Below, in pieces: positions 5,074-33,689 of a DNA stretch of 33,689 nucleotides (position 1 is the first letter of the stretch; the number at the start of each line of letters is the position of its first letter). This DNA comes from an uncultured Caldilineaceae bacterium. GTDB lineage: Bacteria > Chloroflexota > Anaerolineae > 4572-78 > J111. The stretch lies in the NCBI GenBank assembly GCA_964505845.1, contig CAZDMM010000003.1:2139-35827 (forward strand). The letters run 5' to 3'. Under the pieces are notes generated by a model. It did not search any database, had not been told where the DNA came from, and saw only the letters and a list, made by a program, of their open reading frames with translations. The position numbers and the translations under genes were made by a program.

Positions 5074-5080
5074 GGTCGTT

Positions 5081-5896: not shown

Positions 5897-5925
5897 TGGA
5901 AGGCTGGGTTTTTTCCAGCCTTCCA
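5897..5925. repeat. Intergenic hairpin, perfect 11-bp stem TGGAAGGCTGG / CCAGCCTTCCA with loop GTTTTTT, embedded in a GGTTGGAGGG/GGAAGG low-complexity repeat (about 5866-5940)
   Basis: Arms verified as exact reverse complements. It lies directly after the ATPase stop codon. Confidence 0.65.
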
Positions 5926-5973
5926 GCCTTCCCTTCTTCCTATTTAATTACGTTGCAAATGGATAACTGACAC

Positions 5974-13361: not shown

Positions 13362-13437
13362 TAAAACTCCTCCACCGGCCCTCATGATAGCCCTGTCCGG
13401 CCGCTTCCGCAAAGAAGGTTGGGCAGCCCACCGGCGC

Positions 13438-14484: not shown

Positions 14485-14531
14485 GGCCGGCTCCCCAGCC
14501 ACAACCTGCTTCTGGCTGGATAAAGCCCCGG

Positions 14532-14556
14532 CAGGTTTTTGAAACCTGTCAGGTTT
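14532..14556. other. Three 7-mers CAGGTTT / AAACCTG / CAGGTTT able to form two mutually exclusive small hairpins
   Basis: 7-mers at 14532-14538, 14542-14548 and 14550-14556, read directly. They lie in the 64-nt gap between the membrane-protein gene and the cytochrome gene. Confidence 0.4.
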
Positions 14557-14566
14557 AGATTAGCGG

Positions 14567-15295: not shown

Positions 15296-15325
15296 ACTGA
15301 CAATAAAAAATACGGCGCGATCAAG

Positions 15326-17326: not shown

Positions 17327-17382
17327 CCCACTCCTCCCCTCCCCAAAGATTTGGGGGCTTTCATGGCGCCTCTCCAATCTTG

Positions 17383-18504
17383 TCAATAACCTACCGCTCT
17401 AAACTCGTGGCGTGCAATCTGCTGGTTTAACGGGTCAATACAAATCTCAAAGGGCGTAGTCTGACTCCCCACGATGACTTCAGGATAGGCCGGGGCATAT
17501 TCGCCAAAACCGGCTACCTGCCCCTGGTCATCATAAGTAGTGGCCATGATAACCAAATAATCCGCCAGCGGAGAGCCTGTGTTTTGAACCTGGCCGCTCA
17601 GACAATACATGTTCGATTCACCGGCCCATTGGTTGATATTGGCAAATTGAAAATCCTGGCGGGGGAAATCGGTAGCCGGGGCCGATAGGGCCACCAGGTC
17701 AAGACGATAGATGGGCTGAGGGCTTTCGACTGTCAGCTCAAAGGGCACATGCGCGCCCGGCGGGATCACCTCGACCGGCACATAACTCAGGGTATCAATT
17801 TCATCTTCGATGACCTGGTCCTGGGCATCGTAAAAAATGCCAGACACTTCAACCGCCTGTTGGGGGCTGCCGGTACTGTTGATGAGTTCGCCCACCACCA
17901 CGGCGTTGCCTTCCTCAAGCGAGGTGTGAACCGCTCTAAAAGACCATCCAGGGACTTCGGAGTTGGGCTCTGGCTCAGAGTCTGGCGGCGGGGGAAGGGT
18001 GGCGGTAGGATTCGGCTCGATGGGCGGCAGGGCCGTTGGCTGCACCGGGAACGTGGGCGTAACTGCAACGGTGGGAGGCGCGGCCAGGGTGGGCTGGCCG
18101 GCGTCTGGCGAGGCCACTATCACCGGCTGGGCTGGGGCCTCGCTGCCCGGCTGCGGTATGGGGGTGGGGGTCAAGGTGGGCAGGTGTAAGGGGGGGGCGG
18201 CCCTGGCCGTCGCCGTTGGGGTAGCCGGGGCCGGTTGAGCCGGCGGCAGCGCGCCGGGCAAGGCGGCCGCCGGCTTTGCCTGGGCCACAGCAGCCGTGGT
18301 GGGGGTAAAAGTGGGCAAAAGGTTCTTAATGCGAACGGCCCCGGAGGGCGCCGCCCCACCCCACGAGCAGGCCAGCGAAACCAGGGCCGCCAGGGTGATG
18401 AAGACCGGCGACGGCAGCCATGCAGCGCCTCGCTCCGGGCCGGCGGCCTGAGAGTCGCTGTCGCCAGGGTTTTGAGCACCACAATTTTGACGATGGTTGA
18501 ACAT
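17383..18504 (-). CDS. Membrane-anchored Pro/Ala/Thr-rich protein with two C-terminal FxLYD-like beta domains
   Basis: 373 aa. TM segment VFITLAALVSLACSWGG, then a low-complexity linker of about 140 aa. Two related roughly 90-aa modules follow (GELINSTGSPQQAVEVSGIFYDAQDQVI; GQVQNTGSPLADYLVIMATTYDDQGQVA). The FxLYD assignment is tentative. Confidence 0.55.
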   Translation of the reverse strand: MFNHRQNCGAQNPGDSDSQAAGPERGAAWLPSPVFITLAALVSLACSWGGAAPSGAVRIKNLLPTFTPTTAAVAQAKPAAALPGALPPAQPAPATPTATARAAPPLHLPTLTPTPIPQPGSEAPAQPVIVASPDAGQPTLAAPPTVAVTPTFPVQPTALPPIEPNPTATLPPPPDSEPEPNSEVPGWSFRAVHTSLEEGNAVVVGELINSTGSPQQAVEVSGIFYDAQDQVIEDEIDTLSYVPVEVIPPGAHVPFELTVESPQPIYRLDLVALSAPATDFPRQDFQFANINQWAGESNMYCLSGQVQNTGSPLADYLVIMATTYDDQGQVAGFGEYAPAYPEVIVGSQTTPFEICIDPLNQQIARHEFRAVGY

Positions 18505-18534
18505 ATTGGCGTTCCCCCGTTAATTTAAGATGAA

Positions 18535-20412: not shown

Positions 20413-22584
20413 CTATAACCTGTTTCCAGGCGCCGCCACCCGCTCTGCTTCATCGGCTACCCCTCGCAGCTCTGGCATGGGTGCAGGCCAGGAGCGCGCC
20501 CAACGCCGGCGCCCCAGCCACAGCCCGGCCGCCAACATCAGCCCCAAGCCGAGTATCCCGGCGGCTGCGGTGAGGGTCGGCTCCAGAGGCCGCTTAGAAA
20601 TAATGACCGGGCGGGCCGGACCTGCCGGGGCCACCAGCCACGTGAAGCGAGCCACGCTGTCTTCAAGGCCCTGCCGCCGGACCACTACCTGCACCTGCCA
20701 GGCCCCGGCCAGGCTGAGGTTGCCGCCGCCCACCTGGTAGAGTCCCGGCTCAAGCTCAAGCGCGTCGGCGGAGGTGCGGCCTAAATCCTGGTCCAAAAAG
20801 GTAAAGTGCAGGATAACCCGCATCACCTCGGCCGGGGGTGGACGCCGGGTGCTCACCGCCCGCACGGTGAAGATATTTTGGCCGGGCCGGTTGGGCTTGG
20901 CCGAGAAGGTGACCAGCATATCATCGGCCATCTGGTCAAGCATGGCCGGAATTTCTTCCGCCGCCACCTCAAACTCCGCCCCACGCGCCGGCGGAGCCGC
21001 CGTGACCAGGCCCGTAACCAGCAAGACCACCAACCCTACCCCGGCTTCGGCTAAAAGCAGGGCCGGCAGGCGGCAGAGGGGGAGAGGCGTCCACCCCGGC
21101 GGGCGATGCAGCCAACGCGCCAGCGGTGCGGCCAGGGAGGGATGCAGCAGCAGCACATTCAACAGGCCCAGCACGCCGGCCAGCAGGAACAAGCTAATTT
21201 TGCCCAGGAGGGCCTGCCCGTACAGGGTAGCCAGCAAAGCATCAAACGAGGCCGCCTGCCGGCCGGTGTTGTACAACCCGGTAGCCAGCAGCAGCCCCAC
21301 GCTGAGGGCAGCCAGGCCGCTAAAAGCCCCCCAGCCGGCCCGCGCCAGGGCAGCCCCATCAGCTTGATGCTGGTTCCGCCTCAGCAGCGGCAATCCGGCC
21401 AGCAGCAGGGCCAGCAGCCCACCCAGCCACAAGCCGGCCGCCAGCAGGTGGAGCGTATCTACGGCCACCGCCACAGCCGTGTTTGGGGTGAGGGCCGCCG
21501 CATGCCCGGTCAAAGCCTGCACCGCCAGCAGAGCCAGCAGCAGCAGGCCGGTCAGCGCCAAAAGCGATTTGTGGTTCAACAGAGAAGCAGCGGTCAGGAA
21601 TTTAACTCCTGCTGCGTTGCCCTGGCCCTTCTCAAGCGTCAAGGATTGTACCGGCCCGCGCTGCAGCCGGAACAGCCCGGCCAGCAGCGCCGCCAAAATC
21701 CCCTGGCGCAGCAGCCACAGCAGGCCCCAACGAGTTTGGCCAAGCAAAGGCCAGATTATGCCGGCCGGGGAGGCGCTCTCCGGCAGCGTTTCTAGCAGCA
21801 GCATCATCTGCCACAACAGCAGGCCGAACCCTGCCGCCAGGGCCAGGCCGGCGCAGGCGGCCGCCAGGGCCAAAACCCGGCTTTGGGCGGCAATCCGCAG
21901 CGCCTTAAGCGGCGGAGCTTCGCCGGGCGAGGGGCGGGTAAAGCCCAAAACCCAATAAGCCACCCCCACACTGCCGGCCAGGGTCAGCAGAAAAGAATAG
22001 TTAAGCCAGCGCAGCAGCACCTCCAGCGCCGGGATCTGGGTTTCGGCCTGGAACGCTGCGGCGCCGGACAGGTCTGCCTTAGCCCCTACCCCAACCCCCC
22101 GCAGGCCCTGGGTAAAATGGCCGTCAGCCTCCGACAGCACCCGCCAGCGCACGCTGTAAAGGCCAGGCGGCAGAGGGGGCAGCTTCAAGAGCAAAAGCTT
22201 CTCGGCCGGCTCAACCCGGAGCTTGTGAAGCCGCACTACCCGGCCCTGGGCGTCTAAAATTTGGGCGCTGCTAAACTGGGAAGAAATGGCTTCGCTGAAC
22301 CAAAGGCGCACCTCAGACGGCGCCTTGGCCAGGATAGCGTTGTCGGCCGGGTCGGAGCGCACCAGGATAGCATGAGCCGCAGCACTGGTGGGAATTACAG
22401 CCGCCGCCAGAAGGGCCAGCAGGGCCGCTAACCAGCTTCTTCTAAAAGCCTGTCTGAAAAGCTTCCCGGAGGCTCGATCCTGAGGAAGACCGGCTGTTAA
22501 CGCCAGAGATTGTCTCTGGAAACCAGCCTCCGGGAAGCTAAACCACCGGCTTTTCAGACAGTTTTTAAGGATTAGGTTGACCAT
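20413..22584 (-). CDS. CopC-CopD fusion protein (YcnJ-like) with an extra C-terminal YtkA/FixH-like domain and a terminal TM
   Basis: Mature N-terminus HAILVRSDPADN... with SEADGH (CopC D-x-H). A poly-TM CopD-like region of about 340 aa follows, then a beta-rich roughly 110-aa domain and a final TM. The start is uncertain because the first about 45 codons run through a nested inverted repeat. Confidence 0.75.
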   Translation of the reverse strand: MVNLILKNCLKSRWFSFPEAGFQRQSLALTAGLPQDRASGKLFRQAFRRSWLAALLALLAAAVIPTSAAAHAILVRSDPADNAILAKAPSEVRLWFSEAISSQFSSAQILDAQGRVVRLHKLRVEPAEKLLLLKLPPLPPGLYSVRWRVLSEADGHFTQGLRGVGVGAKADLSGAAAFQAETQIPALEVLLRWLNYSFLLTLAGSVGVAYWVLGFTRPSPGEAPPLKALRIAAQSRVLALAAACAGLALAAGFGLLLWQMMLLLETLPESASPAGIIWPLLGQTRWGLLWLLRQGILAALLAGLFRLQRGPVQSLTLEKGQGNAAGVKFLTAASLLNHKSLLALTGLLLLALLAVQALTGHAAALTPNTAVAVAVDTLHLLAAGLWLGGLLALLLAGLPLLRRNQHQADGAALARAGWGAFSGLAALSVGLLLATGLYNTGRQAASFDALLATLYGQALLGKISLFLLAGVLGLLNVLLLHPSLAAPLARWLHRPPGWTPLPLCRLPALLLAEAGVGLVVLLVTGLVTAAPPARGAEFEVAAEEIPAMLDQMADDMLVTFSAKPNRPGQNIFTVRAVSTRRPPPAEVMRVILHFTFLDQDLGRTSADALELEPGLYQVGGGNLSLAGAWQVQVVVRRQGLEDSVARFTWLVAPAGPARPVIISKRPLEPTLTAAAGILGLGLMLAAGLWLGRRRWARSWPAPMPELRGVADEAERVAAPGNRL
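22450..22561 (-). repeat. 112-nt nested inverted-repeat element (MITE-like or structured leader) inside the annotated 5' end of the copCD-like ORF
   Basis: AGCTTCCCGGAGGCT (22460-22474) pairs perfectly with AGCCTCCGGGAAGCT (22525-22539). The outer arms CTGTCTGAAAAGC (22450-22462) and GCTTTTCAGACAG (22549-22561) also pair. An inner 7-bp hairpin CCAGAGA-TTG-TCTCTGG lies at 22503-22519. Confidence 0.7.
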
Positions 22585-22605
22585 GATAGTATGGGAGACA
22601 TACCT

Positions 22606-22634
22606 ATTATATGAAAAGGTCTCCTGGGTGTTAA
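22606..22634 (-). promoter_or_regulatory. Candidate promoter TTAACA-17 nt-TATAAT for the copCD-like unit, bracketed by the dyad GGAGAC (22594-22599) / GTCTCC (22619-22624)
   Basis: Read on the minus strand: -35 at 22634-22629, a perfect -10 at 22611-22606, with an exact 17-nt spacer. It lies in an AT-rich island about 21 nt upstream of the ATG at 22584. Confidence 0.45.
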
Positions 22635-22692
22635 TGACCCTGCCCCACCCTTAAAGAACTAAAAAAGGACTATCATCAGACCGGTTCTGGCG

Positions 22693-22710
22693 AAAAGAAC
22701 TAGTTCTTTT
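22693..22710. promoter_or_regulatory. 18-bp perfect palindrome AAAAGAACTAGTTCTTTT, with an extra half-site AAAGAACTA at 22653-22661
   Basis: Verified by hand. It lies in the 153-nt AT-rich gap between the small secreted protein gene and the copCD-like promoter. Confidence 0.5.
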
Positions 22711-22737
22711 AACACAAAAAAGACTATTTACAGCCGG

Positions 22738-23337
22738 CTATGGCTTGAAGATGACCGGCAAAAAAATCTGGCGCACCCTGCCCACCAACTCGCCATGGCT
22801 ATCAAACATAGGTAGTTTGGCCATGAAGGTGGGAGTAATAGCGCCGGGTTGGAGGAGTTGAGCGGTGCAAATCACCTGGGTATGCTCTTTGACCAGCACC
22901 CGGCCCGACCCCTGCTCGATGCCGGCCGTGTTCAACGGAAATTCGGTAAACAGGGTCGCTTGGGTGGAATAGGTGCCTGTCTCGTGGGCCGACAAAATGT
23001 CGGTGAAGGGCGACGCCAACGCCGACCCTCCCCCACTCTGAAAAAATTGCACCTCCACCGTCACCGCCGTCAACCCAAAGTTGGTGCAGTGAACCGAGGT
23101 CGCTATCTGATCCTCCCCCGTGCTGTCGTTGGCTACCCCCGTGAACATATACAACACCGTAAAGCCCGGCGACGGCGCATCCCCCAACCCTGACCCTTCC
23201 AGACTGCGCTGCTCTGCCGCCACCCCCTCTTCCCCGCTCTCTCGCCCCGGCCCCTGCGCCAACACCACAGCCAGGCTTACCACCAGCCCCAATCCCAAAG
23301 CCAGACCCAACGTGACAACCGTTTTTATCCTCCGCAT
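22738..23337 (-). CDS. Small secreted protein of unknown function (full-length copy)
   Basis: ATG at 23337 (MRRIKTVVTLGLALGLGLVVSLAVVLAQG) with GGAG 8 nt upstream. Signal peptide, beta-rich body with 2 Cys, and C-terminus ...RQIFLPVIFKP. No family recognised. Confidence 0.65.
   Translation of the reverse strand: MRRIKTVVTLGLALGLGLVVSLAVVLAQGPGRESGEEGVAAEQRSLEGSGLGDAPSPGFTVLYMFTGVANDSTGEDQIATSVHCTNFGLTAVTVEVQFFQSGGGSALASPFTDILSAHETGTYSTQATLFTEFPLNTAGIEQGSGRVLVKEHTQVICTAQLLQPGAITPTFMAKLPMFDSHGELVGRVRQIFLPVIFKP
22826..23320. repeat. Copy 1 of a 495-bp exact tandem duplication (period 584 bp)
   Basis: ORF translations in all three frames are identical between the copies, and the junction bases were checked by hand (identity 22826-23320 = 23410-23904). 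Confidence 0.85.
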
Positions 23338-23378
23338 CAAACCATCTCCGGCAGGCCAGCCTACTTTTCAGACAGTTT

Positions 23379-23918
23379 TTAAGGCTTGTACATTTCCAAC
23401 TCTGAGACAAAGGTGGGAGTAATAGCGCCGGGTTGGAGGAGTTGAGCGGTGCAAATCACCTGGGTATGCTCTTTGACCAGCACCCGGCCCGACCCCTGCT
23501 CGATGCCGGCCGTGTTCAACGGAAATTCGGTAAACAGGGTCGCTTGGGTGGAATAGGTGCCTGTCTCGTGGGCCGACAAAATGTCGGTGAAGGGCGACGC
23601 CAACGCCGACCCTCCCCCACTCTGAAAAAATTGCACCTCCACCGTCACCGCCGTCAACCCAAAGTTGGTGCAGTGAACCGAGGTCGCTATCTGATCCTCC
23701 CCCGTGCTGTCGTTGGCTACCCCCGTGAACATATACAACACCGTAAAGCCCGGCGACGGCGCATCCCCCAACCCTGACCCTTCCAGACTGCGCTGCTCTG
23801 CCGCCACCCCCTCTTCCCCGCTCTCTCGCCCCGGCCCCTGCGCCAACACCACAGCCAGGCTTACCACCAGCCCCAATCCCAAAGCCAGACCCAACGTGAC
23901 AACCAGCTTCTTTTGCAT
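23379..23918 (-). CDS. C-terminally truncated paralog of the small secreted protein (possible duplication remnant or pseudogene)
   Basis: It has its own ATG at 23918 with AAGGAGG upstream and a different N-terminus (MQKKLVV). It is identical to the full-length copy through ...AITPTF, then diverges to VSELEMYKP-stop at the duplication junction and lacks the last 28 aa. Confidence 0.5.
   Translation of the reverse strand: MQKKLVVTLGLALGLGLVVSLAVVLAQGPGRESGEEGVAAEQRSLEGSGLGDAPSPGFTVLYMFTGVANDSTGEDQIATSVHCTNFGLTAVTVEVQFFQSGGGSALASPFTDILSAHETGTYSTQATLFTEFPLNTAGIEQGSGRVLVKEHTQVICTAQLLQPGAITPTFVSELEMYKP
23410..23904. repeat. Copy 2 of the 495-bp exact tandem duplication
   Basis: See 22826-23320. 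Confidence 0.85.
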
Positions 23919-23945
23919 GCGCTTCCTGCCTCCTTTCGCCGCAGC

Positions 23946-24503
23946 TTACCGCCATGACCAGCAGCCGGCCTTAACCCGGCGCCGCAGCGCCGCTGCCAGC
24001 CCCACCAGGCAGACAAGCCCCAACCCGGCCGCCAGCCAGCCGAGCGACCTGGCCCTGGCCCTGCCGGGGATTGTGGCCGGGGTTGAAACCTGGTTGGCGT
24101 CAGCCCGGCCTACGGAAAAGCTAAATTCACCGGCGGTGGTATCGCCATCATCGGCGCTGACGGCCGTCCAGAGGACCCGGTAAGCGCCGGTGGGCAGCGC
24201 AGCCGGCAGGGTAACTTGCATGGAGGCATGCGCCGGGTCACTAAGGTCCACCTCGCCATCGCCGTTATCAACCGGCTGCCCGCCGGCATCCACCACTTGC
24301 AGCGCGCTCAGATGGGTGTCAAGCTCCTGGCTAAACCAGGCTGTTACCTGCCTGGGTGGTTGAGCCAACACGGCTTCATTTTCAGGCATGGATTTGAGCA
24401 GCAGCGCATGAGCGGCGGCTGCGGCCGCCAGCCACAGGCAGGCCAACCCACTCACCAGAAGGAAGGCCAGCCGGGCCGCGGCAGAACCTTGAGGCCGTCT
24501 CAT
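23946..24503 (-). CDS. copC: CopC-domain protein with a C-terminal transmembrane anchor
   Basis: The signal peptide ends AAAAA|HALLLKSMPEN, giving an N-terminal His as in CopC/YobA. Body VLWTAVSADDGDTTAGEFSFSV. C-terminal hydrophobic segment LGWLAAGLGLVCLVGLAAAL followed by RRR. Confidence 0.75.
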   Translation of the reverse strand: MRRPQGSAAARLAFLLVSGLACLWLAAAAAAHALLLKSMPENEAVLAQPPRQVTAWFSQELDTHLSALQVVDAGGQPVDNGDGEVDLSDPAHASMQVTLPAALPTGAYRVLWTAVSADDGDTTAGEFSFSVGRADANQVSTPATIPGRARARSLGWLAAGLGLVCLVGLAAALRRRVKAGCWSWR

Positions 24504-24506
24504 AGA

Positions 24507-25013
24507 CTACTGCACCGGCACGTGCTCAAGGCGCGCTGCGCCAACCCGCACTGTGACCAGATCCCCCGGCCTGATCACCCCACCCTCGTTGACCAGGATT
24601 TCATTGTAAATGACGCCGGCCTTAAGCTGGCTCTTGGAGGAGTGATCGTGAAAGGGCCGGTCAACAATCCGCCCGGTGGCCTCGTTCATCAAGGCAGGCG
24701 GGGTTTTGGTGTCATGCACAATCACGGCTTTGTCCGGGTCTACCACCCGGTAGCGCATATCAATCATCCCACCCCCGGCGGTGCTGCTGACGCGAATGAG
24801 GCGCAGGCCGGTTTCAGCGGTAAAGAGGGTTTGCGAGAGGCCCTGCAGCGGGTCATGCGCCGCTGCATCATGCCTGAAGCTAACCAGGCTGGGCCAGGTC
24901 AGGATCATGCCGATGATCAACCCGGTCAGGCAGAAGATTGCGCCTGCCAGGCCGATTAAACCCCACAAGTCGCGGGGCGGCTCAGAGGGCTTGGTAAAAG
25001 TATTCGAGGCCAT
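24507..25013 (-). CDS. Membrane-anchored hypothetical protein
   Basis: 168 aa. GGAGG lies 6 nt upstream of the ATG. One N-terminal TM (LWGLIGLAGAIFCLTGLIIGMIL), then an extracytoplasmic domain of about 120 aa. The stop is 3 nt before the CopC start. Confidence 0.6.
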   Translation of the reverse strand: MASNTFTKPSEPPRDLWGLIGLAGAIFCLTGLIIGMILTWPSLVSFRHDAAAHDPLQGLSQTLFTAETGLRLIRVSSTAGGGMIDMRYRVVDPDKAVIVHDTKTPPALMNEATGRIVDRPFHDHSSKSQLKAGVIYNEILVNEGGVIRPGDLVTVRVGAARLEHVPVQ

Positions 25014-25058
25014 GATTTACCTCCATACGATTTAGGGCTGACGCCGTGAAGCTTAATA

Positions 25059-26873
25059 TCAGGGCCGGGCAATGGTGATGCTGGTACCGTTGCTGGCCTG
25101 GGTTCCGCTGTCGGGGTCGTGGTTGTTGGCCGGCATGTATGGCCCGGCCCCGGCTGCGCCGGTAACACCGCTGACCGTGAAGGTGACGCTGGCGACAGAG
25201 TCAGGAAACCCTCTGGTGATCAAGCATGTCCCGCCGGACGATGTGCCAAAGGCGCAGGTGTTTAAGATGGCGGTTCCCCCCGGACTCCACGCGCCGGCCG
25301 GAACTGCCCCGGCGACAGGGCCATGCGTTGCGTTGTCAACCCGGATGACCACGGTAGCAAACCAGCCAATGAGGGGAGGGTTGCTGGCGGATTGGTCCAG
25401 ATCGCCAATGTGTTTGTTAGGGGCCGGATTAACGGTAGTGCTCTGGCTGGCGCTCTCATTGCCGGGGCTTGGATCGCCGGTGGTAGAGACAACACTGGCG
25501 GTGTTAGACAAGGAGCCGGCCGCGCCGGGAGTGACCACAATGGTAACGGTGGCGCTGCCGGGGAAGGGGATGCTCCCCAGGTTACAGGTGATGGTGGTAT
25601 CGCAGGAACCTTGAGAGGGCGTTGCCGAAACCAGCGTGACCCCGCCGGGCAGGGTATTGGATAAGACCACATTATCGGCCTGGTCAGGCCCGTTGTTGGT
25701 AACAGTGACCAGGTAAGTCACATTCGTTCCGGCCGTCGCCGGGTCGGGCGAGTCGGTCATGGCAACGGCCAGGTCGGCCTGGGCCGGCGGTGTGGCCACG
25801 CCGGTCGCCGTTAAAAAGGTCAACATGCCCCCGCCGGGAAAGTAATGCCCGGGGCCGGGGCTGCCGTTGGTAAGATGAAGCTGGCGGTTGAAGAGGGGAA
25901 AGTTGCCGGCGGCGGTGGGGCTGATGAGCACGTCGGTGGTGTGACCGGAGGGAATGGTCTCGGCGACGGCGTCAAAAGCCTGCCCGCTGCCCAGAAAATC
26001 TGCATCTCTGGCAATAACCCGCTGATACTCGCCAAGCAGCAGCATGGTGTGGTGGGTACCCCCGGCGTTCAGATAACGCACCAGGATGGTATTCTGGCCC
26101 GCGCTCAGGTCGGCGTTGATGGCCGAGGAGTAAGGCTGCGAGGCGCCGGGAGCGTCGGGGTCAAGCACATCGGGGTTGGCGTTGCTGCCGGCCGGGCCGC
26201 CAAAGGCCCGCCCGTTGAGCAGCCAGTAGGTGGGGTTGTAATCCAGCAGGTTAAAACCAGACGGGTCGGCGTTTAGGGCTGGGTCAAGCTCGCTCAGCAC
26301 CAGCACTTGCTCCACATCGTAGGCGGTTGAGGCGTCATCATAAGCCTGACCTGGCGCAGCCGGGTCAACCATGAAAGCGCCGTACAGGCCCATTGCCGTC
26401 TGCGGCTGGTCAGACGTGCCGCTTTCATACAGGTAAGTGCCGGCCGCTACATTATTAAACTGGTAGGTTACGGTATCGCCGGGGTTGGCTTCTTGGGTAA
26501 AAGTACCGGCCGATCCGCCGCTGACCCCGCTGAGCACCTGCCCCGGCAGGCTGAAGGAGGTTGGGACCGGCAGATTGTTGTGCAGGATAATGGTGACATC
26601 ATCGCCGGCGTTAACCCGCAGTTCAGGGCCGGGCAGTTGGGCCGGCAGGGAGCAGTCGTTGCTGGTGGAGATGGGGGCAAAGCCCCAAATGGGCACGGAG
26701 AGGCCATCGGGCATGGTGACGCTGCCCACGTTGGCGCACAGTTCCAGGGTAACAGCGGCTGCAGCCGGAGCCGCGGCCAGGGCCGGGGCGCTGTTGAGCG
26801 AGGCGGCCCACACAAGCGCCGCCAGCAGCGGAACGAAACCCAATCCGGTGATTCTACTCTTTCTTGTCAGCAT
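25059..26873 (-). CDS. Two-domain cupredoxin (multicopper-oxidase-like) protein A lacking canonical copper ligands, fused to a DUF11 repeat and a further C-terminal beta domain
   Basis: ATG at 26873 (MLTRKSRITG...) preferred because AAGGAG lies 9 nt upstream; the ORF track starts at 26894. Sec-type signal. Paralogous to B (GTYLYESGT, LYGAFMV), but the His motifs are replaced (SFSLPG, YLYESG, HHTMLLLG). DUF11-like LVTVTNNGPDQADNVVLSNTLPGGVTLVSATPSQGSC. Confidence 0.7.
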   Translation of the reverse strand: MLTRKSRITGLGFVPLLAALVWAASLNSAPALAAAPAAAAVTLELCANVGSVTMPDGLSVPIWGFAPISTSNDCSLPAQLPGPELRVNAGDDVTIILHNNLPVPTSFSLPGQVLSGVSGGSAGTFTQEANPGDTVTYQFNNVAAGTYLYESGTSDQPQTAMGLYGAFMVDPAAPGQAYDDASTAYDVEQVLVLSELDPALNADPSGFNLLDYNPTYWLLNGRAFGGPAGSNANPDVLDPDAPGASQPYSSAINADLSAGQNTILVRYLNAGGTHHTMLLLGEYQRVIARDADFLGSGQAFDAVAETIPSGHTTDVLISPTAAGNFPLFNRQLHLTNGSPGPGHYFPGGGMLTFLTATGVATPPAQADLAVAMTDSPDPATAGTNVTYLVTVTNNGPDQADNVVLSNTLPGGVTLVSATPSQGSCDTTITCNLGSIPFPGSATVTIVVTPGAAGSLSNTASVVSTTGDPSPGNESASQSTTVNPAPNKHIGDLDQSASNPPLIGWFATVVIRVDNATHGPVAGAVPAGAWSPGGTAILNTCAFGTSSGGTCLITRGFPDSVASVTFTVSGVTGAAGAGPYMPANNHDPDSGTQASNGTSITIARP

Positions 26874-26912
26874 AGTCTGTATCTCCTTCTGCATAGGGAT
26901 CGTTCCCGGCGT

Positions 26913-28196
26913 TTATTGACCACAGCTTCCCGGCGGGTCAACCCTAACCAGGGTTGCCAGGCCGCCAAAGCCTTCGTCAAAGTTTTGAAACTCGTTGAGG
27001 GCGTGGCTGTGCCAGGGAAAGTAGAACTCACCGCACTCGTTGAGCAGGGTATTGCCGGGTGGAAAATCGGCCTGCACGCCCAGGTCGGGGTCGCCGCTGA
27101 ACCAGGTTAACCCATCTTTGAAGACCAGGTTCAGCAAACCCGGATAAGTGACCTGGTCTCTAATCCGGGGAGGATTGCCGTTAGCGCCCCATTGTTCCAC
27201 ATTGATCCAGCGAAAGAGCAAATCATAGGTTTGGCCCGCGCCGATGGTGGTGCTGAAATTTTCATAGGGCAGGCTTAACAGCCGGCCATCCCGGCCGATG
27301 ACCCGCATGTGGTTGCCGTGCGGGTGAAAGGGGTGGTTCTCCAGGCCGGCGTTGATATAGCGAATGAGGGCAGGGCGGCCCAAATTGTTGGGGTCAACAT
27401 CTGCCTTCACCTCCACCAAGGCTCCGTAAGGTTGGTGGGGCAGCCAGGGTGCATGATTGGGGGCGATAGAATCGGGGAAGGAGCGCCCGTTGACGGTCCA
27501 GTAGTGGTCTTTGCGGTGGGTCACATCAAAGGTTTGGTTTCGCTCCACGGCCTGATGCAGGGCCGGGTCCAAATCGTGGATCAGCAGCAAAAATTCTCGC
27601 CCCGGTTCAAACTCGGTGGAGGCGTTGTTGTAGGCAAAGTTAGCCCCCATGGCCGGGCGCACAATTAAAGCGCCGTACAGGCCCATCTCTACCTGCTTGT
27701 GGGGATCGGTGCCGCTTTCATAAAGATAGGTGCCCGGCCGGTTGGCGGTAAAGGTGTAGCTGGCCGAGCCACCGGCGGCGTTAGCCTCGGCGGTAAAAAG
27801 CCCGGCGGCATCGCCGCTGGCTGTAACCCCGATTTGCCCCGGAAAAATAATGGAGGTGGCTTCGGGCAGGTGGTTGGTGAGGTTGATGGTGACGGTATCG
27901 CCTTCATTGACGCACAACACCGGGCTGGGCACCTGAAAATTTCCCCCGGCATCGCTGTTGGCAAATGTCCACATAAAGAGGCTGTTGCCGTCGGGGGTTT
28001 GCATGTGGCCGGTTTGGGTTTCAAGGTTAAAGGTAGGGCCGGTGGTGCAGATGTCGGACAGGGTGGCCGGGGCAGCCGCCGGAGCCAGCCGGGTCCGGCC
28101 GGCGGCCAGAGCGGGCCAGAGCGTTACGCCCAGCACGCCGATGAGCAGCACCAAGCCCAACCTGACTTTTTTAAGGCGCATCTTATGAAGCATCAT
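26913..28196 (-). CDS. Two-domain multicopper-oxidase-like protein B: domain 1 has no ligands; domain 2 has HPFHPHG and HSH (T1 Cys replaced by Ser)
   Basis: 427 aa. Sec-type signal. AAGGAG upstream; start is 28196 or 28193. Motifs and their codons verified on the sequence (27318-27335; 27003-27011). Confidence 0.75.
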   Translation of the reverse strand: MMLHKMRLKKVRLGLVLLIGVLGVTLWPALAAGRTRLAPAAAPATLSDICTTGPTFNLETQTGHMQTPDGNSLFMWTFANSDAGGNFQVPSPVLCVNEGDTVTINLTNHLPEATSIIFPGQIGVTASGDAAGLFTAEANAAGGSASYTFTANRPGTYLYESGTDPHKQVEMGLYGALIVRPAMGANFAYNNASTEFEPGREFLLLIHDLDPALHQAVERNQTFDVTHRKDHYWTVNGRSFPDSIAPNHAPWLPHQPYGALVEVKADVDPNNLGRPALIRYINAGLENHPFHPHGNHMRVIGRDGRLLSLPYENFSTTIGAGQTYDLLFRWINVEQWGANGNPPRIRDQVTYPGLLNLVFKDGLTWFSGDPDLGVQADFPPGNTLLNECGEFYFPWHSHALNEFQNFDEGFGGLATLVRVDPPGSCGQ

Positions 28197-28231
28197 CTTT
28201 CTCCTTTCAGTGAGATTCAGCTAACTCGGCG

Positions 28232-29608
28232 TTATGGGCGCGTCCGCCCAAAGGTTTGATTGGGCCTGGTTTGCGGGGCAAGCGTGTCTGCGCCCTGGTA
28301 CACCCGCACCTGGGTAATCTGGCCGCCCAGGGCCACGGCATTGCCATCAATATCTTCCAGAGACCCCGCCTGGGCCAGGTTATCGTTTTCAACTGCGCCG
28401 TTGACCAGCCGCTGGGGGTGATGGTTTTTGAACCAGTACACGTTGTAAGGCCCGTTGCTGTCGCTGCCTCCCGGCAAGCTGGAATTATAGCCCGGCGCTT
28501 CAAACAGAATATCGCGGGCCTCACCCGGCCCAATGTAAATGGTGTGGGTTTGGTAGGCCAGCGGGCCTAAGAAGGTAGCATCGTGGCCGACCACCCTCAT
28601 GTGCAAACCCTGCATTTGCATAGTTTGCTGCTCGTAGCCCAAGTTAGCCATGCGCAGCAAAATGGTCTCGCCCTCGTTGGCCTGGATCAGCGAGGAGACC
28701 GGCTGCCGGCCTGCCAGCTCGGTGCCAACAATGTCATCGTCGGTTAAGAGCGTATCGGGGTAAGAGCGGCTGTTGATCACCCAGTAGTTGGGGTCGTAGT
28801 TAGACCAGACAAACTCTTGCACGTTGATCAGATTATCGTGCGGGGTGGTATCAATTTCATTCAGCAGCAGGGTGTACTCCCGGTCAAAGGCGGTGCTGCC
28901 GTCGGCATAAGCCTGGTTGGGCGCACCGGCCGGCCGGATAAAAACAATGCCATCCATGCCCATCTGCACATGCTCCGAGTCTTCAAAGTGGCAGTGGTAC
29001 ATGTAAGTGCCCGGCACTTTGGGCCGGAAGAAGTAAGGAAATTCGCGGGACGGGGGTACGGCAATAGACACTTCCGGCACCCCGTCAAAAACGGCGTTGG
29101 GGTTGCGGAAACCGTGCCAGTGGATGGTGTGGGAGTCATCCAGGTCTGGCCGCCCCACCAGGCCGGCGTTGAGCACGGTAATGTACAGGGTGTCGTTCTC
29201 GTTCACCCCGATAATAGGGGCCGGGCCTCGCACTTTGCCTTTAACCCGATTAATGGCCTCGGCAATAGTATCTGACAGCGGTACCTCCACAAAGCCAAAA
29301 GCATACAAACCATTATGCTCATCCGGTGTGGCAAAGGGATCACCCCCGGTGTTGCCGGGGTCAGGAAAAATGCGCCGGCCCGGCAAAGAGATGTAACCGT
29401 CGGTGGCCGCCAGGCGCAAATTAAGCGTGGCGGCGGCCGGCCGGGCCGGGGGGAGCGCCGGCCCGGCCATGCCGGCCGGCCGGGCCAGGGCGGCCTGAGC
29501 GGGCGGCAGGTGGCTCATGGCCGACAGGACAGCCAGCAGCGTCCCTTTGGCCCCCAATTTAAGAAAGTCGCGCCGGCTAAATCTGCGAGGGGTAAATTTC
29601 TCAGTCAT
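28232..29608 (-). CDS. Tat-exported two-domain multicopper-oxidase-like protein C: domain 1 has HTIHWHG and HCHx5Hx4M; the domain 2 His motif is replaced by QTMQMQG
   Basis: 458 aa. AGGAGG upstream of the ATG. Twin-arginine signal SRRDFLKLG. Motif codons verified on the sequence (29114-29131; 28955-28996; 28610-28627). Confidence 0.8.
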   Translation of the reverse strand: MTEKFTPRRFSRRDFLKLGAKGTLLAVLSAMSHLPPAQAALARPAGMAGPALPPARPAAATLNLRLAATDGYISLPGRRIFPDPGNTGGDPFATPDEHNGLYAFGFVEVPLSDTIAEAINRVKGKVRGPAPIIGVNENDTLYITVLNAGLVGRPDLDDSHTIHWHGFRNPNAVFDGVPEVSIAVPPSREFPYFFRPKVPGTYMYHCHFEDSEHVQMGMDGIVFIRPAGAPNQAYADGSTAFDREYTLLLNEIDTTPHDNLINVQEFVWSNYDPNYWVINSRSYPDTLLTDDDIVGTELAGRQPVSSLIQANEGETILLRMANLGYEQQTMQMQGLHMRVVGHDATFLGPLAYQTHTIYIGPGEARDILFEAPGYNSSLPGGSDSNGPYNVYWFKNHHPQRLVNGAVENDNLAQAGSLEDIDGNAVALGGQITQVRVYQGADTLAPQTRPNQTFGRTRP

Positions 29609-29651
29609 CGTAAGCTTCCTCCTGTAGCTGCTTGTTTAGAGCGACCATTTG

Positions 29652-29692
29652 CCCTCCCCCGTCCCCGCCCCTGAAGGGGCAGGGGGGAGAGG
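29652..29692. repeat. GC-rich imperfect hairpin (CCCTCCCCCGTCCCCGCCCC TGAA GGGGCAGGGGGGAGAGG) downstream of the giant gene
   Basis: Core GCCCC-TGAA-GGGGC extended by C-run/G-run pairing with bulges. There is no adjacent U-tract on the minus strand, so a terminator role is unproven. Confidence 0.4.
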
Positions 29693-29741
29693 TAAGCCTC
29701 GCTTAAGTCCCTATCCAGAGACCTCTGTAGGTGGATAGGCT

Positions 29742-32700
29742 CTAAGGCCGGTCAATTCCGTCTATATCGTTACCACCCAGGCCAAAGGCGGCGCCGTCAA
29801 AGTAGAGGCTGCCCGAGGTGCAGGCGGTATTCGGCCCGGTGGTAGGCGCAGCGCAGATAAAGACATCGTCATTCTGGGCGTCTACCCCAGGATTGGGCGG
29901 GATAAAAGGCGCCGCAACGTCGCCGGTGGTGCTCAGGTAAATATCGCCGCCAAAACTGGAGACGGCGTCAATATTCTCACCGGCCGCGCCCAGCCCCACG
30001 TCAGAGCCATCAAAGTACATGCCCCAGGCCCCGCTGGTGTAGAAGTTGGGCGTGGCGGGGGTAAAGGCCAGAATATCCTGGCCCACGCCAGACACGCCGC
30101 CGGGCACAGTTACCGGCCCTCTGGTAGAGATCAACAGCGTGCCGTCAGGGAGCAGGTCTATAGCGTCCACATCCTCGCTGGGGGTGGTCAGGCCGACGTC
30201 CACCCCTCGCAGGAACATGCTGAAGGTTCCGGCCGTAGTCGCGCCATAGGCGCTGCCGGTAAATTTAACAATATCGGAGTCATCCACCGGGTCCAGGATG
30301 TTATCGCCGTTGAGATCAAGGCTGGCCGCCGACTCAAAGGAGATGAGGATGGCGCTGCCGCCGTCAACGATATCGAAGGCGTCCAAATCCTGCCCGCCGT
30401 TGATACCTACGTCAGAGCCATCAAAGACCATCATGAAGGTATCGGTGGCATCGTTAAAGCCGAGGATGTCTTCATCACGCACGCCGCTGACCGCGCCAAC
30501 CGTATAACCGGCCACGCCGCCGTTGTTGACCAGCGAGAGATAGAGATCGGCCACCGGTAAGCTGCCAGCCGGGTTGACCGTGACCGTGACCAGGTCGCTG
30601 GCGGTAAGCTGGCCATCATAGGCCGTCAGGGTGAGGGTGTAGAGACCGGCGGCGGCAAAGGTGGCGGTAGGGGTGATAACGTTGGGGTTAGGGGCAAAGG
30701 TAACTGCCCCCGGCCCGCCGGTTACCGTCCAGGTGATGATGAGGGTGGGGTTGACCAGGCCGTCGTCGTTGACGGTCCCGCTCAGATTGACTGCCGCCGG
30801 CAGGGTAATAGTTTGGGCCAGGCCGGCCTCAACCACCGGGGCCAGGTTAAACGAGCCGCCGGCGCTGCAGCCGGGAGCCGGGGCCAAGCCGGGCTGCTCA
30901 TCCGCCCCGATGTCGTACAGATCGTTGAAAGGCCGCCCGTCGTGGTCATAATCATCACAGGCCGCCGCCGCGCCGCTGCCCAGGGGGTCTAGCGCAGCTC
31001 CGGTATCAACGGCCGGCGCCGCCGCCTGAGTATGATAGTTGCCCTGCAAGGTGATTGGCTGCGGAACGGTGACCATGATGACGGTAATAAAGTCGGGTTC
31101 CATGCGGAAGGGCACGGCGCTGAGCTGGGTAACGTAATGGCTGGGGAACAGGGCGTTCAGATCACCGCAGGCCAGATTGGTGGCATGCGGGGCAAAGCTT
31201 TCGGTCACATCGTTAGGGTCGGTTAGCAGCGAGGCGGTGGGGTGCAGCACCTGGCCCGCGCCGCCGGCAAAAACCTGCAAATCAAAGATGCTGTTGAACA
31301 GCAGGTTGGCCCCATCCCAGGTGTAAGCCTGATTCTCACAGATGATATTGTTGAACATCACCGGGTCTACGTAACCGCCCGGCCCGATGCCAAGATAAGC
31401 CTCAAAACCGGCGCTGTAGGTTTCAACGGCCACGCCGGCCCCGTTGGGAATATGGTGGCGGCCATTGGCGTCTTCGGAGGTGGAGGTATTGGCGTTGCGG
31501 GCGATGGTGTTGTTAACAATGGTCACGGCCGAGGCGTCGTCCAGGGCAATGCCGCCGCCAAAATCGGTGGAGACGTTGTTGACGATGATGTTGTTGCTGA
31601 TGTTGATGGCAAAGTCGAGCGGCTGCAGCAGCCTGACCCCGCCGCCGTCGTCGTTGGACATGTTGCCCTGGATCAGGTTGTGGTCAATGTCAACCTCGCC
31701 CGCGCCGGCGGTGAAAGTGGCCGGGGCTACCGGCTGCTCGCCGGCAATCATCACCCCGCCGCCTTCGTCAAAGGCGTTGTTAAAATAGACCAGGTTGTGG
31801 TGGATGCGGCCGCGCCGGCTCAGGCCAAAGTGGGAGATACCGCCGCCGTATTCGCCGGAGTAGTTGCCGCAGATTTCGTTGTGGGCAATTTCGTAATCGT
31901 TGGCGCCATTAAAGATACCGATGCCGCCGGCCAGGCTGAAGCCGCCGTTGTTGAGGATGCGGTTGTGATGGATGCGAATGTTATCGTTATTGTTGTCACC
32001 CCGGTACGGTTCACCCAGGGTAATACCGCCGCCGAAGTTGCCGCCGTTGCTCTGGATGACGTTGTTGCTAATTACCGCAAACTCGCCGTTGAGGTCCACG
32101 TGGACGCCGCCGCCAACATCCTGCTCGTCGCGGGCGTTGGAGATGCGGAAGCCGTCAATTTGCGGGTGCAGGAGTGCAGTAAACTGGCCGGGTGCGCCGC
32201 CGACGATATTGATGCCGACAGGGTCGAGGATAAAGCGCTGATCGAGCACGGAACCGCCGGTACCAAACCCGTCGTTTACGCCCGGACCGTAGCCTTGCAG
32301 GGTAACGGCCTTGTTCAAGTTGACCGCGCCAAAGTGCTGACCGGGGGTCAGGACAATCAGGTCGCCCGGGGCGGCTGCGTCAATCGCGGCCTGGATCGAG
32401 TCGCCGGGGTCAACGATAAAGTCAGGCGTCGCCCCGACGTGGAAGGTGATGCCGGTCTGGCTGATCTTGCCGTTGCCGGCAGTCACCAGCAGTTGGCCGG
32501 GGCCGTTGGCAAAGCCGGGCGGAATGGTCACCTGAATGGATGTATCCGACCAACTGGATACCGCCAGCGGGCTGCCGTTAATCGTCACCGCGCCGCTGCC
32601 CTGAGTGGCCCCAAAGCCGGCGCCGGTGATGGCAATGAGGGAGGGGCTGCCGGCATTGCCGTAGGGTGGGTCCACCACAAAGACCTGCGGCTGGTCGGCG

Positions 32701-33689
32701 GCCGGCAGGCACAGGGCCGGCTGGCCAAACTGGGAACCAGGGAAGGCGGTAAAGGCGGTAATGGGGAAGAGGGCCACGTCGGCGAAGGTGGTTTTGCCCG
32801 GCCAGACGTCAAAGACAAAGGTGATGGTCTGGTAGTTAGGGTTGAAGTTAGGGCTGGGATTGTCCGGGTCACCGGGGTCGTTGCCGATCACCCGGTACAT
32901 CCCCGGGCAAACGCCGGAGGGGATGGGACAATTAGCCGTGTAAGTGGAAGGCAGCACGACTTCAAAAATACCGTTCTGGTCGGTGGTGAGCATGGTGATC
33001 AAGCGGCCGCTAAAGTCGCGGATGCCGACGGAGGTGTTGGGGATGCCCCGCTTCTCGCCGTAGTAGATCAGGCCGGGGTCGGTCTCGATGTTGAGATCGT
33101 CCAGCAGGAAGCCGTAGATGCGGCCAGCCGTCGGCACGGCTTCGCTGGTGGTCCAGTTGCGGGTCGCCGCGTCCCCATCGTCGTCACTATCGCTGAAGAG
33201 GAAGAAATCGGCGGCCGCGTTCTGCTGGTCTTGCAGAGTGACCAGCCTTTTGTTACACAGCGGCATGTTCTGACCGTCATAGGGGTTGCGCGAATCGCTG
33301 ACCAGGTGGAGCGGGCCAACACATTCCGCCGGCGGGAAGGCCGGGATAAATTCGTTGCCTTCGTCGGTGTTCTGGTCTTCTTCTTTGAGGATTTGGTAAT
33401 AGGGCGGCGTCACCACCTCGACGACGTAGTCGCCAGCAGGCAAGCCATCTTCTTCCACCGCTCCCTCTGCGCCCAAGAAGGGGGTCCAGTAACTCTCAAA
33501 GGCGTAGCCGCCATCAAAGACGCCATCCTTAACCTCGTTAGAGATGTTGGGGACTTCGATACAGTTGGGGCCTAAGTTCAACGGGTCGGGCAGCGGCGCA
33601 CCGTTGGAATCAAGCGCGTCACAGCCAGTGGGATGTTCCCAGGAGTCCGTCTGGACTTCATTCAGGAGAACATCATCGCTCGACGGTGT
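29742..33689 (-). CDS. Giant secreted/surface protein, 5'-truncated by the window edge: SdrD/Cna-B-like and IPT/TIG domains, parallel beta-helix (PbH1) repeats, a PKD-like domain and four C-terminal repeat modules of about 65 aa
   Basis: I translated 33582-33689 by hand. The frame stays open to the window edge (TPSSDDVLLNEVQTDSWEHPTGCDALDSNGAPLPDP-LNLGPN...), so the TTG at 33581 is not the start. PbH1-like repeats NxIxxNxxxxxGGG(I/V) occur at least 6 times. IPT-like motif SLIAITGAGFG...VTINGSPL...VTIPPG. Confidence 0.8.
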   Translation of the reverse strand, partial: TPSSDDVLLNEVQTDSWEHPTGCDALDSNGAPLPDPLNLGPNCIEVPNISNEVKDGVFDGGYAFESYWTPFLGAEGAVEEDGLPAGDYVVEVVTPPYYQILKEEDQNTDEGNEFIPAFPPAECVGPLHLVSDSRNPYDGQNMPLCNKRLVTLQDQQNAAADFFLFSDSDDDGDAATRNWTTSEAVPTAGRIYGFLLDDLNIETDPGLIYYGEKRGIPNTSVGIRDFSGRLITMLTTDQNGIFEVVLPSTYTANCPIPSGVCPGMYRVIGNDPGDPDNPSPNFNPNYQTITFVFDVWPGKTTFADVALFPITAFTAFPGSQFGQPALCLPAADQPQVFVVDPPYGNAGSPSLIAITGAGFGATQGSGAVTINGSPLAVSSWSDTSIQVTIPPGFANGPGQLLVTAGNGKISQTGITFHVGATPDFIVDPGDSIQAAIDAAAPGDLIVLTPGQHFGAVNLNKAVTLQGYGPGVNDGFGTGGSVLDQRFILDPVGINIVGGAPGQFTALLHPQIDGFRISNARDEQDVGGGVHVDLNGEFAVISNNVIQSNGGNFGGGITLGEPYRGDNNNDNIRIHHNRILNNGGFSLAGGIGIFNGANDYEIAHNEICGNYSGEYGGGISHFGLSRRGRIHHNLVYFNNAFDEGGGVMIAGEQPVAPATFTAGAGEVDIDHNLIQGNMSNDDGGGVRLLQPLDFAINISNNIIVNNVSTDFGGGIALDDASAVTIVNNTIARNANTSTSEDANGRHHIPNGAGVAVETYSAGFEAYLGIGPGGYVDPVMFNNIICENQAYTWDGANLLFNSIFDLQVFAGGAGQVLHPTASLLTDPNDVTESFAPHATNLACGDLNALFPSHYVTQLSAVPFRMEPDFITVIMVTVPQPITLQGNYHTQAAAPAVDTGAALDPLGSGAAAACDDYDHDGRPFNDLYDIGADEQPGLAPAPGCSAGGSFNLAPVVEAGLAQTITLPAAVNLSGTVNDDGLVNPTLIITWTVTGGPGAVTFAPNPNVITPTATFAAAGLYTLTLTAYDGQLTASDLVTVTVNPAGSLPVADLYLSLVNNGGVAGYTVGAVSGVRDEDILGFNDATDTFMMVFDGSDVGINGGQDLDAFDIVDGGSAILISFESAASLDLNGDNILDPVDDSDIVKFTGSAYGATTAGTFSMFLRGVDVGLTTPSEDVDAIDLLPDGTLLISTRGPVTVPGGVSGVGQDILAFTPATPNFYTSGAWGMYFDGSDVGLGAAGENIDAVSSFGGDIYLSTTGDVAAPFIPPNPGVDAQNDDVFICAAPTTGPNTACTSGSLYFDGAAFGLGGNDIDGIDRP

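Follow-up and report, generated by a model that had tools for sequence, protein, structure and literature searches.

A candidate heterotrimeric two-domain multicopper oxidase encoded by three paralogous genes with complementary copper-ligand sets

How could three adjacent genes, each encoding a two-domain cupredoxin that lacks part of the usual copper-ligand set, specify a multicopper oxidase? The question was raised by a 33,689-nt stretch of DNA from an uncultured Caldilineaceae bacterium (contig CAZDMM010000003.1; the whole stretch is called the window here), in which the genes for subunits C, B and A follow one another on the minus strand. In trimeric two-domain multicopper oxidases (2dMCOs), each trinuclear copper cluster (TNC) is coordinated by residues of two protomers (PMC13151041). 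Given this arrangement, a TNC built from the proteins of the window would form only where domain 1 of C meets domain 2 of B, because no other junction has eight histidines. We consider, with good confidence in what their sequences imply, that C, B and A are an obligate heterotrimeric 2dMCO with one type 1 copper site (T1) and one TNC, placed at the interface of C domain 1 and B domain 2.

The open reading frame (ORF) list showed a single minus-strand gene string spanning window positions 20413-33689, in the order giant secreted protein, C, B, A, a 168-aa protein, CopC, a pair of 179-aa and 200-aa ORFs, and a CopC-CopD fusion. An earlier sequence-only reading of the DNA had placed A, B and C at coordinates that all proved to hold ORFs on the minus strand. 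It had also started A at 26873 and, although the longest A ORF starts at 26894, that choice is the better one, as the Shine-Dalgarno sequence AAGGAG lies before the second ATG (26873). Good Shine-Dalgarno sequences precede C and B as well. Pairwise comparison gave 29-31% mutual identity for C, B and A, making them paralogs, and in Pfam the N-terminal half (domain 1) of all three matched the Cu-oxidase profile PF07732 (Cu-oxidase_3; E-values in Table 1), with weaker Cu-oxidase matches to the C-terminal halves of C and B.

PDB sequence searches identified the type-C 2dMCOs 3G5W (the Nitrosomonas europaea blue copper oxidase) and 2ZWN (the metagenomic mgLAC) as the nearest solved relatives of C and B (E ~1e-13 to 1e-14), and found no solved structure closer to either. 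The same two structures were the top Foldseek matches of an AlphaFold2 model of B (E ~1e-15, TM 0.62-0.64 on target), followed by other trimeric two-domain copper enzymes. With two cupredoxin domains per chain and homology to 3G5W and 2ZWN, the proteins can be assigned by sequence to the two-domain type-C fold family.

To compare ligand sets, we drew on a survey of one genome per GTDB species, which gave 496 loci encoding a relative of C, of which the best 80 were fetched; alignment columns were counted over these 80 loci plus the window for C (81 sequences) and over 76 sequences for B. All copper ligands of C lie in domain 1, with His160, Cys206, His213 and Met218 at the T1 site and His 163, 165, 205 and 207 as cluster ligands. 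Each of these residues, and also M216, was found in 81/81 sequences (H160, H163, H165, H205, C206, H207, H213, M216, M218). Among 120 database homologs of C listed (48-100% identity), both domain-1 motifs were present in 120/120 and a domain-2 H-x-H pair was absent from all. The domain-2 cluster positions of the C family are instead occupied by Gln (70/81) and Pro (65/81), the window protein having Gln at both, and the family consensus at the window's EQQTMQMQG is QQHAMQLPG. One His at a vestigial domain-2 position is kept in 72/81 family members and is absent from the window C. At the site where B has H-S-H the C family consensus is N-R-D, and so the histidines of the WFKNHH that window C reads there are not conserved ones.

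B shows the converse pattern. Its cluster histidines (291, 293, 396 and 398) are all in domain 2 and none is in domain 1; H288, H291 and H293 were found in 76/76 sequences, and H396 and H398 in 75/76. Domain 1 carries near-invariant S-I-V-F-P-G and Y-L-Y-E-S-G in which S115, F118, P119, G120, E160, S161, G162 and, further on, Q168 hardly vary. Subunit A reads SFSLPG, YLYESG and THHTMLLLG, and its family alignment contained no conserved His. Nor did the family alignments show a conserved cluster His in domain 2 of C, in domain 1 of B or anywhere in A. In both B and A the former T1 positions are fixed to Ser and Gln with no drift, indicating that the loss of ligands is old and stabilised.

These counts and the verified translations bear out most of what the sequence-only reading had claimed of the three chains: that C keeps a complete domain-1 half (HTIHWHG and HCH-x5-H-x4-M), that A keeps neither half and is fused to DUF11, and that only C domain 1 with B domain 2 totals eight His, the ligand columns being invariant there and unmatched elsewhere. 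For B it was right that the domain-1 motifs are gone and that domain 2 retains HPFHPHG and W-HSH. Its view that Ser for Cys in the HSH of B marks a lost T1 site has to be dropped, because type-C domain 2 has no T1 (3G5W reads HDH). A further invariant residue was noted in the linker, where C H257 and B H214 share an alignment column; A has Asn there and 3G5W a residue other than His.

Several alignments placed the motifs at homologous positions. HMMER aligned HTIHWHG of C with HTIHWHG of 3G5W and HCHFEDSEHVQM of C (HCH..H..M) with HCHVNVNEHVTM of 3G5W, while HPFHPHG of B fell on HAIHTHG of 3G5W and HAMHSHG of 2ZWN. When the C and B family profiles were aligned with each other (E 2.7e-38; Prob 100.0 according to the hit table and 99.95 according to the alignment header), SIIFPG of B came to lie under HTIHWHG of C, YESG..Q..M of B under HCH..H..M of C, and EQQTMQMQG of C under ENHPFHPHG of B, the last being a correspondence that had already been read from the window. 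The WHSH motif of B lies beyond an insertion of ~55 residues and was reached by no sequence alignment; a short C-terminal fragment of B, compared with PDB sequences for a residue-level alignment of WHSH, gave no match. In the AlphaFold2 model both domains of B end in the series strand, ligand position, short helix and last strand, and WHSH comes directly after strand 390-395, as the HCH position does after strand 155-160. The spacing from WHSH to the C-terminal GG strand, judged by eye, is 12 residues, equal to that of IHDH in 3G5W. HMMER, the profile-profile alignment and the predicted secondary structure thus agree that the motifs paired in the sequence-only reading occupy homologous ligand positions.

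A type C 2dMCO has its T1 site in the N-terminal domain (PMC13151041). Only C does so; B reads Thr/Ser, Ser, Gln and Leu at the corresponding positions, and A also lacks the site. None of the three chains contains all eight cluster His, the full set requiring C together with B, which argues that a homotrimer of any single subunit would have no TNC.

The 80 loci came from two phyla, Chloroflexota (Anaerolineae, Caldilineaceae, Roseiflexaceae, Thermoflexus, Chloroflexia) and Actinomycetota (Kribbella, Micromonospora, Actinoplanes, Dactylosporangium, Cellulomonas, Solirubrobacter, Streptosporangium, Nonomuraea, Gaiellales, Acidimicrobiales). Every locus uncut by a contig end or frameshift had the order C-B-A, and each gene in these intact loci scored best against its own counterpart in the window. 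An ortholog of B was present in 75/80 species genomes and one of A in 71/80; A stood after B in 71/80 loci, usually with a 4-nt overlap. The database names of the homologs were all generic. Orthologous three-gene clusters in fixed order therefore exist across the fetched genomes (best 80 of 496), and their ligand loss is complementary rather than random, as the sequence-only reading would have it. Complementarity is a fixed property of three ancient families and not of the window genome alone. Separately, extra C-terminal modules were seen to trade subunits between the phyla, with B of 650-700 aa and A of 300-350 aa in Actinomycetota, and B of ~420-450 aa and A of 410-920 aa in Chloroflexota.

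The genes are laid out as is usual for subunits whose translation is coupled: in 43/74 loci B has its first in-frame start at exactly -8 from the stop of C, and in 38/71 A starts at -4 from the stop of B. Selection was assessed in 13 close genome pairs using homology-defined cores only, since a number of the A ORFs as called extend upstream through B in another frame. Median dN/dS was 0.17 for C, 0.18 for B and 0.29 for A, and no pair exceeded 0.40, indicating that all three genes are under purifying selection and that B and A are not decaying copies.

An exhaustive search with B of 1.84 billion representative proteins found two B-A fusions, P0282 (1156 aa) and P0283 (884 aa), for the second of which P0432 is an independent JGI cluster member. 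Both have the order B module, spacer domain, A module. The B modules (691 and 682 bits, respectively) keep HPFHPHG and WHSH, and the A modules (412 and 441 bits) are entered through a Pro-rich linker without a signal peptide. On its contig P0283 is preceded by the tail of the giant protein and by C and followed by the 168-aa protein and CopCD, so that the fusion stands in for the separate B and A genes in the same operon. Three other candidates (P0305, P0314 and P0329) have low-complexity out-of-frame stretches or retain the B signal peptide, and were dismissed as artefacts of frameshift or read-through. In P0413, a more distant protein, a B-like module and an extra, C-terminal cupredoxin are combined with a complete type-C module; by its sequence, related architectures vary.

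In the arrangement that we propose, six cupredoxin domains form a ring like that of the known homotrimers, but the ring would have a single catalytic centre where theirs has three. Domain 1 of C would give the T1 copper, the His-Cys-His electron path and four cluster His, and domain 2 of B the other four; since T1 and the His-Cys-His bridge are both in C, the path from T1 to the cluster would be intact. The single TNC, at which O2 would be reduced to water, would form at the C-domain-1/B-domain-2 interface only. A would close the ring as a copper-free third subunit, C touching B, B touching A and A touching C, and the ring would hold four Cu (one T1 copper plus three in the cluster) instead of twelve. 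In this organism A also bears a DUF11 surface module, other modules being carried by A, and in Actinomycetota by B, according to lineage.

The export signals suggest where such a ring would be completed. A Tat motif was present in every C, with R12 and R13 invariant, while no conserved Tat consensus was found in the N-termini of B or A, which have Sec-type signals and conserved Cys pairs (C50/C95 and C388/C425 in B; C53/C81 in A). C may thus leave the cell folded via Tat, and B and A via Sec with disulfides formed outside the cell, so that the ring and its interface cluster would be finished outside the cytoplasm. CopC, the CopC-CopD fusion and the 168-aa His protein anchored in the membrane could plausibly aid assembly and copper loading there. 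Paralogy, complementary ligands and their conservation, synteny, gene coupling, purifying selection and B-A fusion are seen in the data; from these we infer that the subunits assemble physically, at 1:1:1, and in what order they stand in the ring, and likewise the routes of export and copper loading and the substrate.

Some observations sit less easily with this proposal. The WHSH motif of B is placed in the model by secondary structure and spacing rather than by residue-level structural alignment, and in the AlphaFold2 monomer pLDDT falls below 50 in the loops that carry the His of B domain 2. Mixed Tat and Sec export would require the interface cluster to be loaded outside the cell. The invariant linker His is not a canonical copper ligand. 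One locus, L083, encodes C (1453-2736), B (2746-4098) and a tandem A-A fusion (4112-6202), without the giant protein, and its four two-domain modules do not fit a plain 1:1:1 trimer. Finally, the copper logic read from the sequences is satisfied by the C-to-B junction and has no need of A, whose place in the ring is argued from synteny, selection and the B-A fusions, not from ligands.

This last point opens the way to an alternative in which C and B are the catalytic pair of a different assembly (a ring of composition C-B-B or C-C-B, or some higher oligomer) and A is a separate cupredoxin-fold protein of the surface or for anchoring. Any ring with one C-to-B junction reaches eight His without A, which moreover evolves faster (dN/dS 0.29), bears variable surface modules (DUF11 in the window, repeat modules elsewhere) and occurs as two modules in a single chain in L083. 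The position of A after B in 71/80 loci, usually overlapping it, its full two-domain core including the C-terminal GGML strand, and the two or three independent assemblies in which a B-A fusion replaces the separate genes inside the operon all speak for a third ring subunit, and we regard a role for A outside the ring as unlikely. Still less probable is a complete separation of the three proteins, with C a T1-only or unusual homotrimeric copper protein and B and A non-catalytic copper-binding, chaperone or structural paralogs. Such a scheme could draw on the different export signals of C and of B and A, on the vestigial domain-2 His of most C-family members and on the linker His, which could serve an unknown site. 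Against it, a T1-only protein would have no reason to keep HxH and HCH, the window C is without the vestigial His, and the four His of C domain 1 and the four of B domain 2 are the exact halves of one TNC, invariant over two phyla.

A nitrite-reductase-like enzyme with a mononuclear interface copper, rather than an O2-reducing multicopper oxidase, might be considered because copper nitrite reductases, also trimers with interface copper, are among the next-best sequence and structure matches. However, the top matches are oxidases, and H-x-x-H-x-H plus H-C-H in C with two H-x-H pairs in B make eight His and not the three of a type-2 site; the type-2 copper of NirK, held by two His of domain 1 and one of domain 2 of the neighbour, and its His-Cys in place of His-Cys-His are not found, and TIGR02376 scored 32-40 bits against a cutoff of 296. 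We therefore give this possibility very little weight. The least credible account, which we discount almost entirely, sees in B and A the decaying duplicates of an oxidase gene that was once complete. Their canonical ligands are indeed lost and AlphaFold2 confidence is lower in B domain 2, but orthologs have been retained across two phyla under the constraint measured above, the former ligand positions hold invariant non-ligand residues, and the domain-2 His of B are invariant.

The heterotrimer favoured here can be set beside several known systems. With the type-C enzymes 3G5W and 2ZWN it shares two cupredoxin domains per chain, the N-terminal T1 (in C), four ligand motifs at the same positions and, as predicted, a TNC shared by domain 1 of a chain and domain 2 of the chain next to it. 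Those enzymes are made from one gene carrying all ligands and form homotrimers in which T1 site and cluster each occur three times, whereas here the ligands are split over two of three paralogous genes, allowing at most one T1 and one cluster per ring, and B and A, unlike a type-C chain, would be non-catalytic on their own. Fold, copper sites and ring would accordingly be those of type-C 2dMCOs, the novelty lying in chains that lack a full ligand set. To our knowledge every characterised 2dMCO is a trimer of identical chains.

Full-text literature searches found no description of a heteromeric 2dMCO, in keeping with the remark in the sequence-only reading that none was known, and the type B class is still described as homotrimeric in a 2026 paper (PMC13151041). 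The only 'heterotrimer' found was Nitrosopumilus maritimus Nmar_1354 (PDB 9CCK), a 2dMCO trimer described as alpha-alpha-alpha-prime, with a cupredoxin domain that dangles from two subunits and is missing on one; a fragmentation pattern in SDS-PAGE is also noted for it, and its copper sites are described as standard T1 and interface trinuclear sites (PMC11761707), unlike the split ligands of C and B. Each of the solved 2dMCO relatives that we found, a dodecamer entry of 2021 among them, is described as a single molecule. Literature matches to 'multicopper oxidase complex' were manganese-oxidation or related papers, which we presume to concern the Bacillus Mnx manganese oxidase.

Six-domain oxidases (ceruloplasmin, hephaestin and MnxG of Bacillus Mnx) are single polypeptides that form a six-cupredoxin ring with a single TNC at one interface, the clusters of the other interfaces having been lost; ceruloplasmin keeps three T1-type sites. 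C/B/A differ in being three separate chains from three genes with their own signal peptides, in having one T1, and in that only B and A are fused, in few relatives; their one-cluster layout is inferred. By analogy they look like the unfused 'triplicated and specialised' stage implied by the scheme leading from trimers to six-domain proteins. In the copABCD system of Pseudomonas syringae, the secreted multicopper oxidase CopA, a three-domain, Met-rich protein, is encoded with CopC and CopD. The shared features are oxidase genes next to CopC/CopD and a nearby OmpR-type two-component system with a weak resemblance to CopRS; the window operon differs in having no CopB and in the added giant surface protein and 168-aa anchored protein. 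C, B and A are two-domain proteins that match the CopA model TIGR01480 at 53-60 bits, over domain 1 only, against a cutoff of 479.

Of unrelated fold and chemistry, and thus a conceptual analogue only, are the yeast proteins Hal3, Vhs3 and Cab3. In their case an ancestral homotrimer with three interface sites gave way to a heterotrimer of paralogs, with complementary loss leaving a single competent interface. This phosphopantothenoylcysteine decarboxylase is described as a heterotrimer (PMC4626798).

We think it probable that the family, which spans 80 species of Chloroflexota and Actinomycetota at the least and probably ~500, consists of obligate C/B/A heterotrimers with a single T1 and TNC, different export routes and assembly outside the cell, working as a conserved surface machine with the giant protein and dedicated copper-handling proteins. 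If so, the enzyme is the first 2dMCO of heteromeric build and an extant, unfused counterpart of the postulated intermediate between trimeric two-domain oxidases and six-domain enzymes of the ceruloplasmin type. The notion of a functional oxidase gene would shift too, since the TNC could form only where two different gene products meet: ~500 species genomes hold three genes named 'multicopper oxidase domain-containing protein', none of which should then work alone, and single-gene heterologous expression in laccase mining would fail. The family would also provide a natural and experimentally tractable example of ceruloplasmin-like evolution through triplication, complementary site loss and then fusion, the fusion step (B-A) being already seen in some lineages. 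It would be a clean case of an interface metal cluster built outside the cell from Tat- and Sec-exported subunits, beside candidate assembly factors. As a conserved surface system of giant protein and oxidase in filamentous soil and wastewater bacteria it was previously uncharacterised, and carriers include cultured genera (Kribbella, Micromonospora, Actinoplanes and Cellulomonas).

Table 1. Features of the oxidase operon in the window, from the upstream end of the minus-strand gene string
Feature	Position	Strand	Evidence
Giant secreted protein, 3' part, directly upstream of C	29742..33689	-	TIG, PKD, SdrD_B-like domains
Subunit C, 458 aa, two-domain cupredoxin, predicted Tat export	28232..29608	-	PF07732 7.6e-18; 3G5W 1.5e-13
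C Tat signal motif RFSRRDFLK	29558..29584	-	R12, R13 invariant in 34-sequence alignment
C domain-1 motif HTIHWHG: T1 His and two cluster His	29111..29131	-	3G5W alignment, column counts, translation
C domain-1 motif HCHFEDSEHVQMGM: cluster His pair around T1 Cys, then T1 His, axial Met	28955..28996	-	
C linker His257	28838-28840	-	81/81
C domain-2 ex-ligand motif EQQTMQMQG	28607..28633	-	Column counts, profile-profile alignment, translation
Subunit B, 427 aa, Sec-type signal, two conserved Cys pairs	26913..28196	-	PF07732 1.1e-14; 2ZWN/3G5W ~7e-14
B domain-1 ex-ligand region SIIFPG ... YLYESG..KQVEMGL	27711..27854	-	Fixed non-ligand residues; aligned under C ligands
SIIFPG of B	27837-27854	-	Verified by translation
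YLYESG of B	27711-27728	-	Verified by translation
B linker His214	27555-27557	-	76/76
B domain-2 motif HPFHPHG: two cluster His and vestigial T1-His position	27315..27335	-	Aligned to 3G5W/2ZWN; invariant
B domain-2 motif WHSH: two cluster His	27003..27014	-	75/76; AlphaFold2 secondary structure
Subunit A, Sec-type signal, two-domain cupredoxin	25059..26873	-	PF07732 1.5e-15; DUF11 2.2e-26
A cupredoxin core without copper ligands (further C-terminal domain also present in A)	25779-26762	-	
A DUF11 module, aa 374-485	25440-25775	-	Pfam 2.2e-26
168-aa partner: N-terminal transmembrane helix and beta-sandwich, invariant H100, H124, H164	24507..25013	-	
CopC copper-binding protein	23946..24503	-	PF04234 1.6e-18
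CopC-CopD fusion membrane protein	20413..22584	-	PF04234 2.1e-18, PF05425 7.2e-14

The remaining genes of the operon were followed through the same loci; where locus ORFs were clustered by single linkage, only clearly coding clusters were used and antisense shadow ORFs were set aside. The oxidase appears to belong to a conserved cell-surface operon headed by the giant secreted protein, a homolog of which lies directly upstream on the same strand in 77/80 loci. In the window its frame is open to the end (33689), so the gene is cut by the window edge. Its conserved core comprises window residues ~1-900, with adhesin-like domains and a weak NosD-like beta-helix start (a 45-residue, sub-threshold match); no PDB sequence matched it. 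The 168-aa protein was found directly downstream of A in 70/80 loci, and a CopC-CopD homolog within 8 kb of C in 53/80. AlphaFold2 gave the 168-aa protein a confident beta-sandwich of generic Ig-like type (pLDDT 85.9), and a D-P-D-K motif is invariant along with the three His. It had no Pfam, NCBIfam or significant Foldseek match, and 41 word-indexed homologs were found. It seems to represent an as yet unnamed family linked to the oxidase operon and, at a guess from its sequence, is a candidate copper-handling, delivery or assembly factor.

The copper-handling neighbours (CopC/CopD, the 168-aa protein and a regulator) make a CopA-like, copper-linked role plausible, and our leading, still tentative, guess is that the enzyme is a copper-homeostasis oxidase, a cuprous oxidase in the place of CopA in copABCD. 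After that comes an oxidase whose target or partner would be the giant surface protein. In ~40 loci, mostly of Actinomycetota (for example L053 539-1279 and L072 12578-13672), the operon has an OmpR-type response regulator and a HisKA sensor kinase beside it. Two points count against a copper role: no Met-rich segments were seen in the proteins, and the best model for the regulator, the heavy-metal CopR/CztR/SilR subfamily, scored 181 bits against a cutoff of 279, with PhoB at 166. The resemblance of the two-component system to CopRS is no more than suggestive.

Downstream of CopCD the minus strand carries further genes (12675-20409), among them a DUF3426-like protein, a subtilase with a DUF11 module (18535-20409), a DUF11 protein (15326-17386), a multihaem cytochrome c (13438-14502) and a Crp-family regulator (12675-13667). 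None of them was among the ORF clusters conserved across related loci, and a link to the oxidase operon is possible, as a locus-specific one at most. Between CopC and CopCD lie the near-identical secreted ORFs of 200 and 179 aa (22738-23918), which had no family match. They contain a tandem duplication (22826-23125 = 23410-23709) that is 100% identical over at least 300 nt at a spacing of 584 nt, reflecting either a recent duplication or an assembly artefact; homologs were seen in L005 only, again in two copies.

The C-terminal ~270 aa of the giant protein (~29742-30550) form a repeat module, 'FDGSDVG...DIDA', that recurs in other proteins of the operon. It was found in the spacer of the B-A fusion P0282 (aa 508-767; E 3e-37), in the tails of A in L003, L025, L027 and L033 (E 3e-34), at aa 677-923 of P0427, and in CopCD-side ORFs of L020 and L026. 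This shuffling of one module among the proteins of the operon suggests a shared docking or anchoring role.

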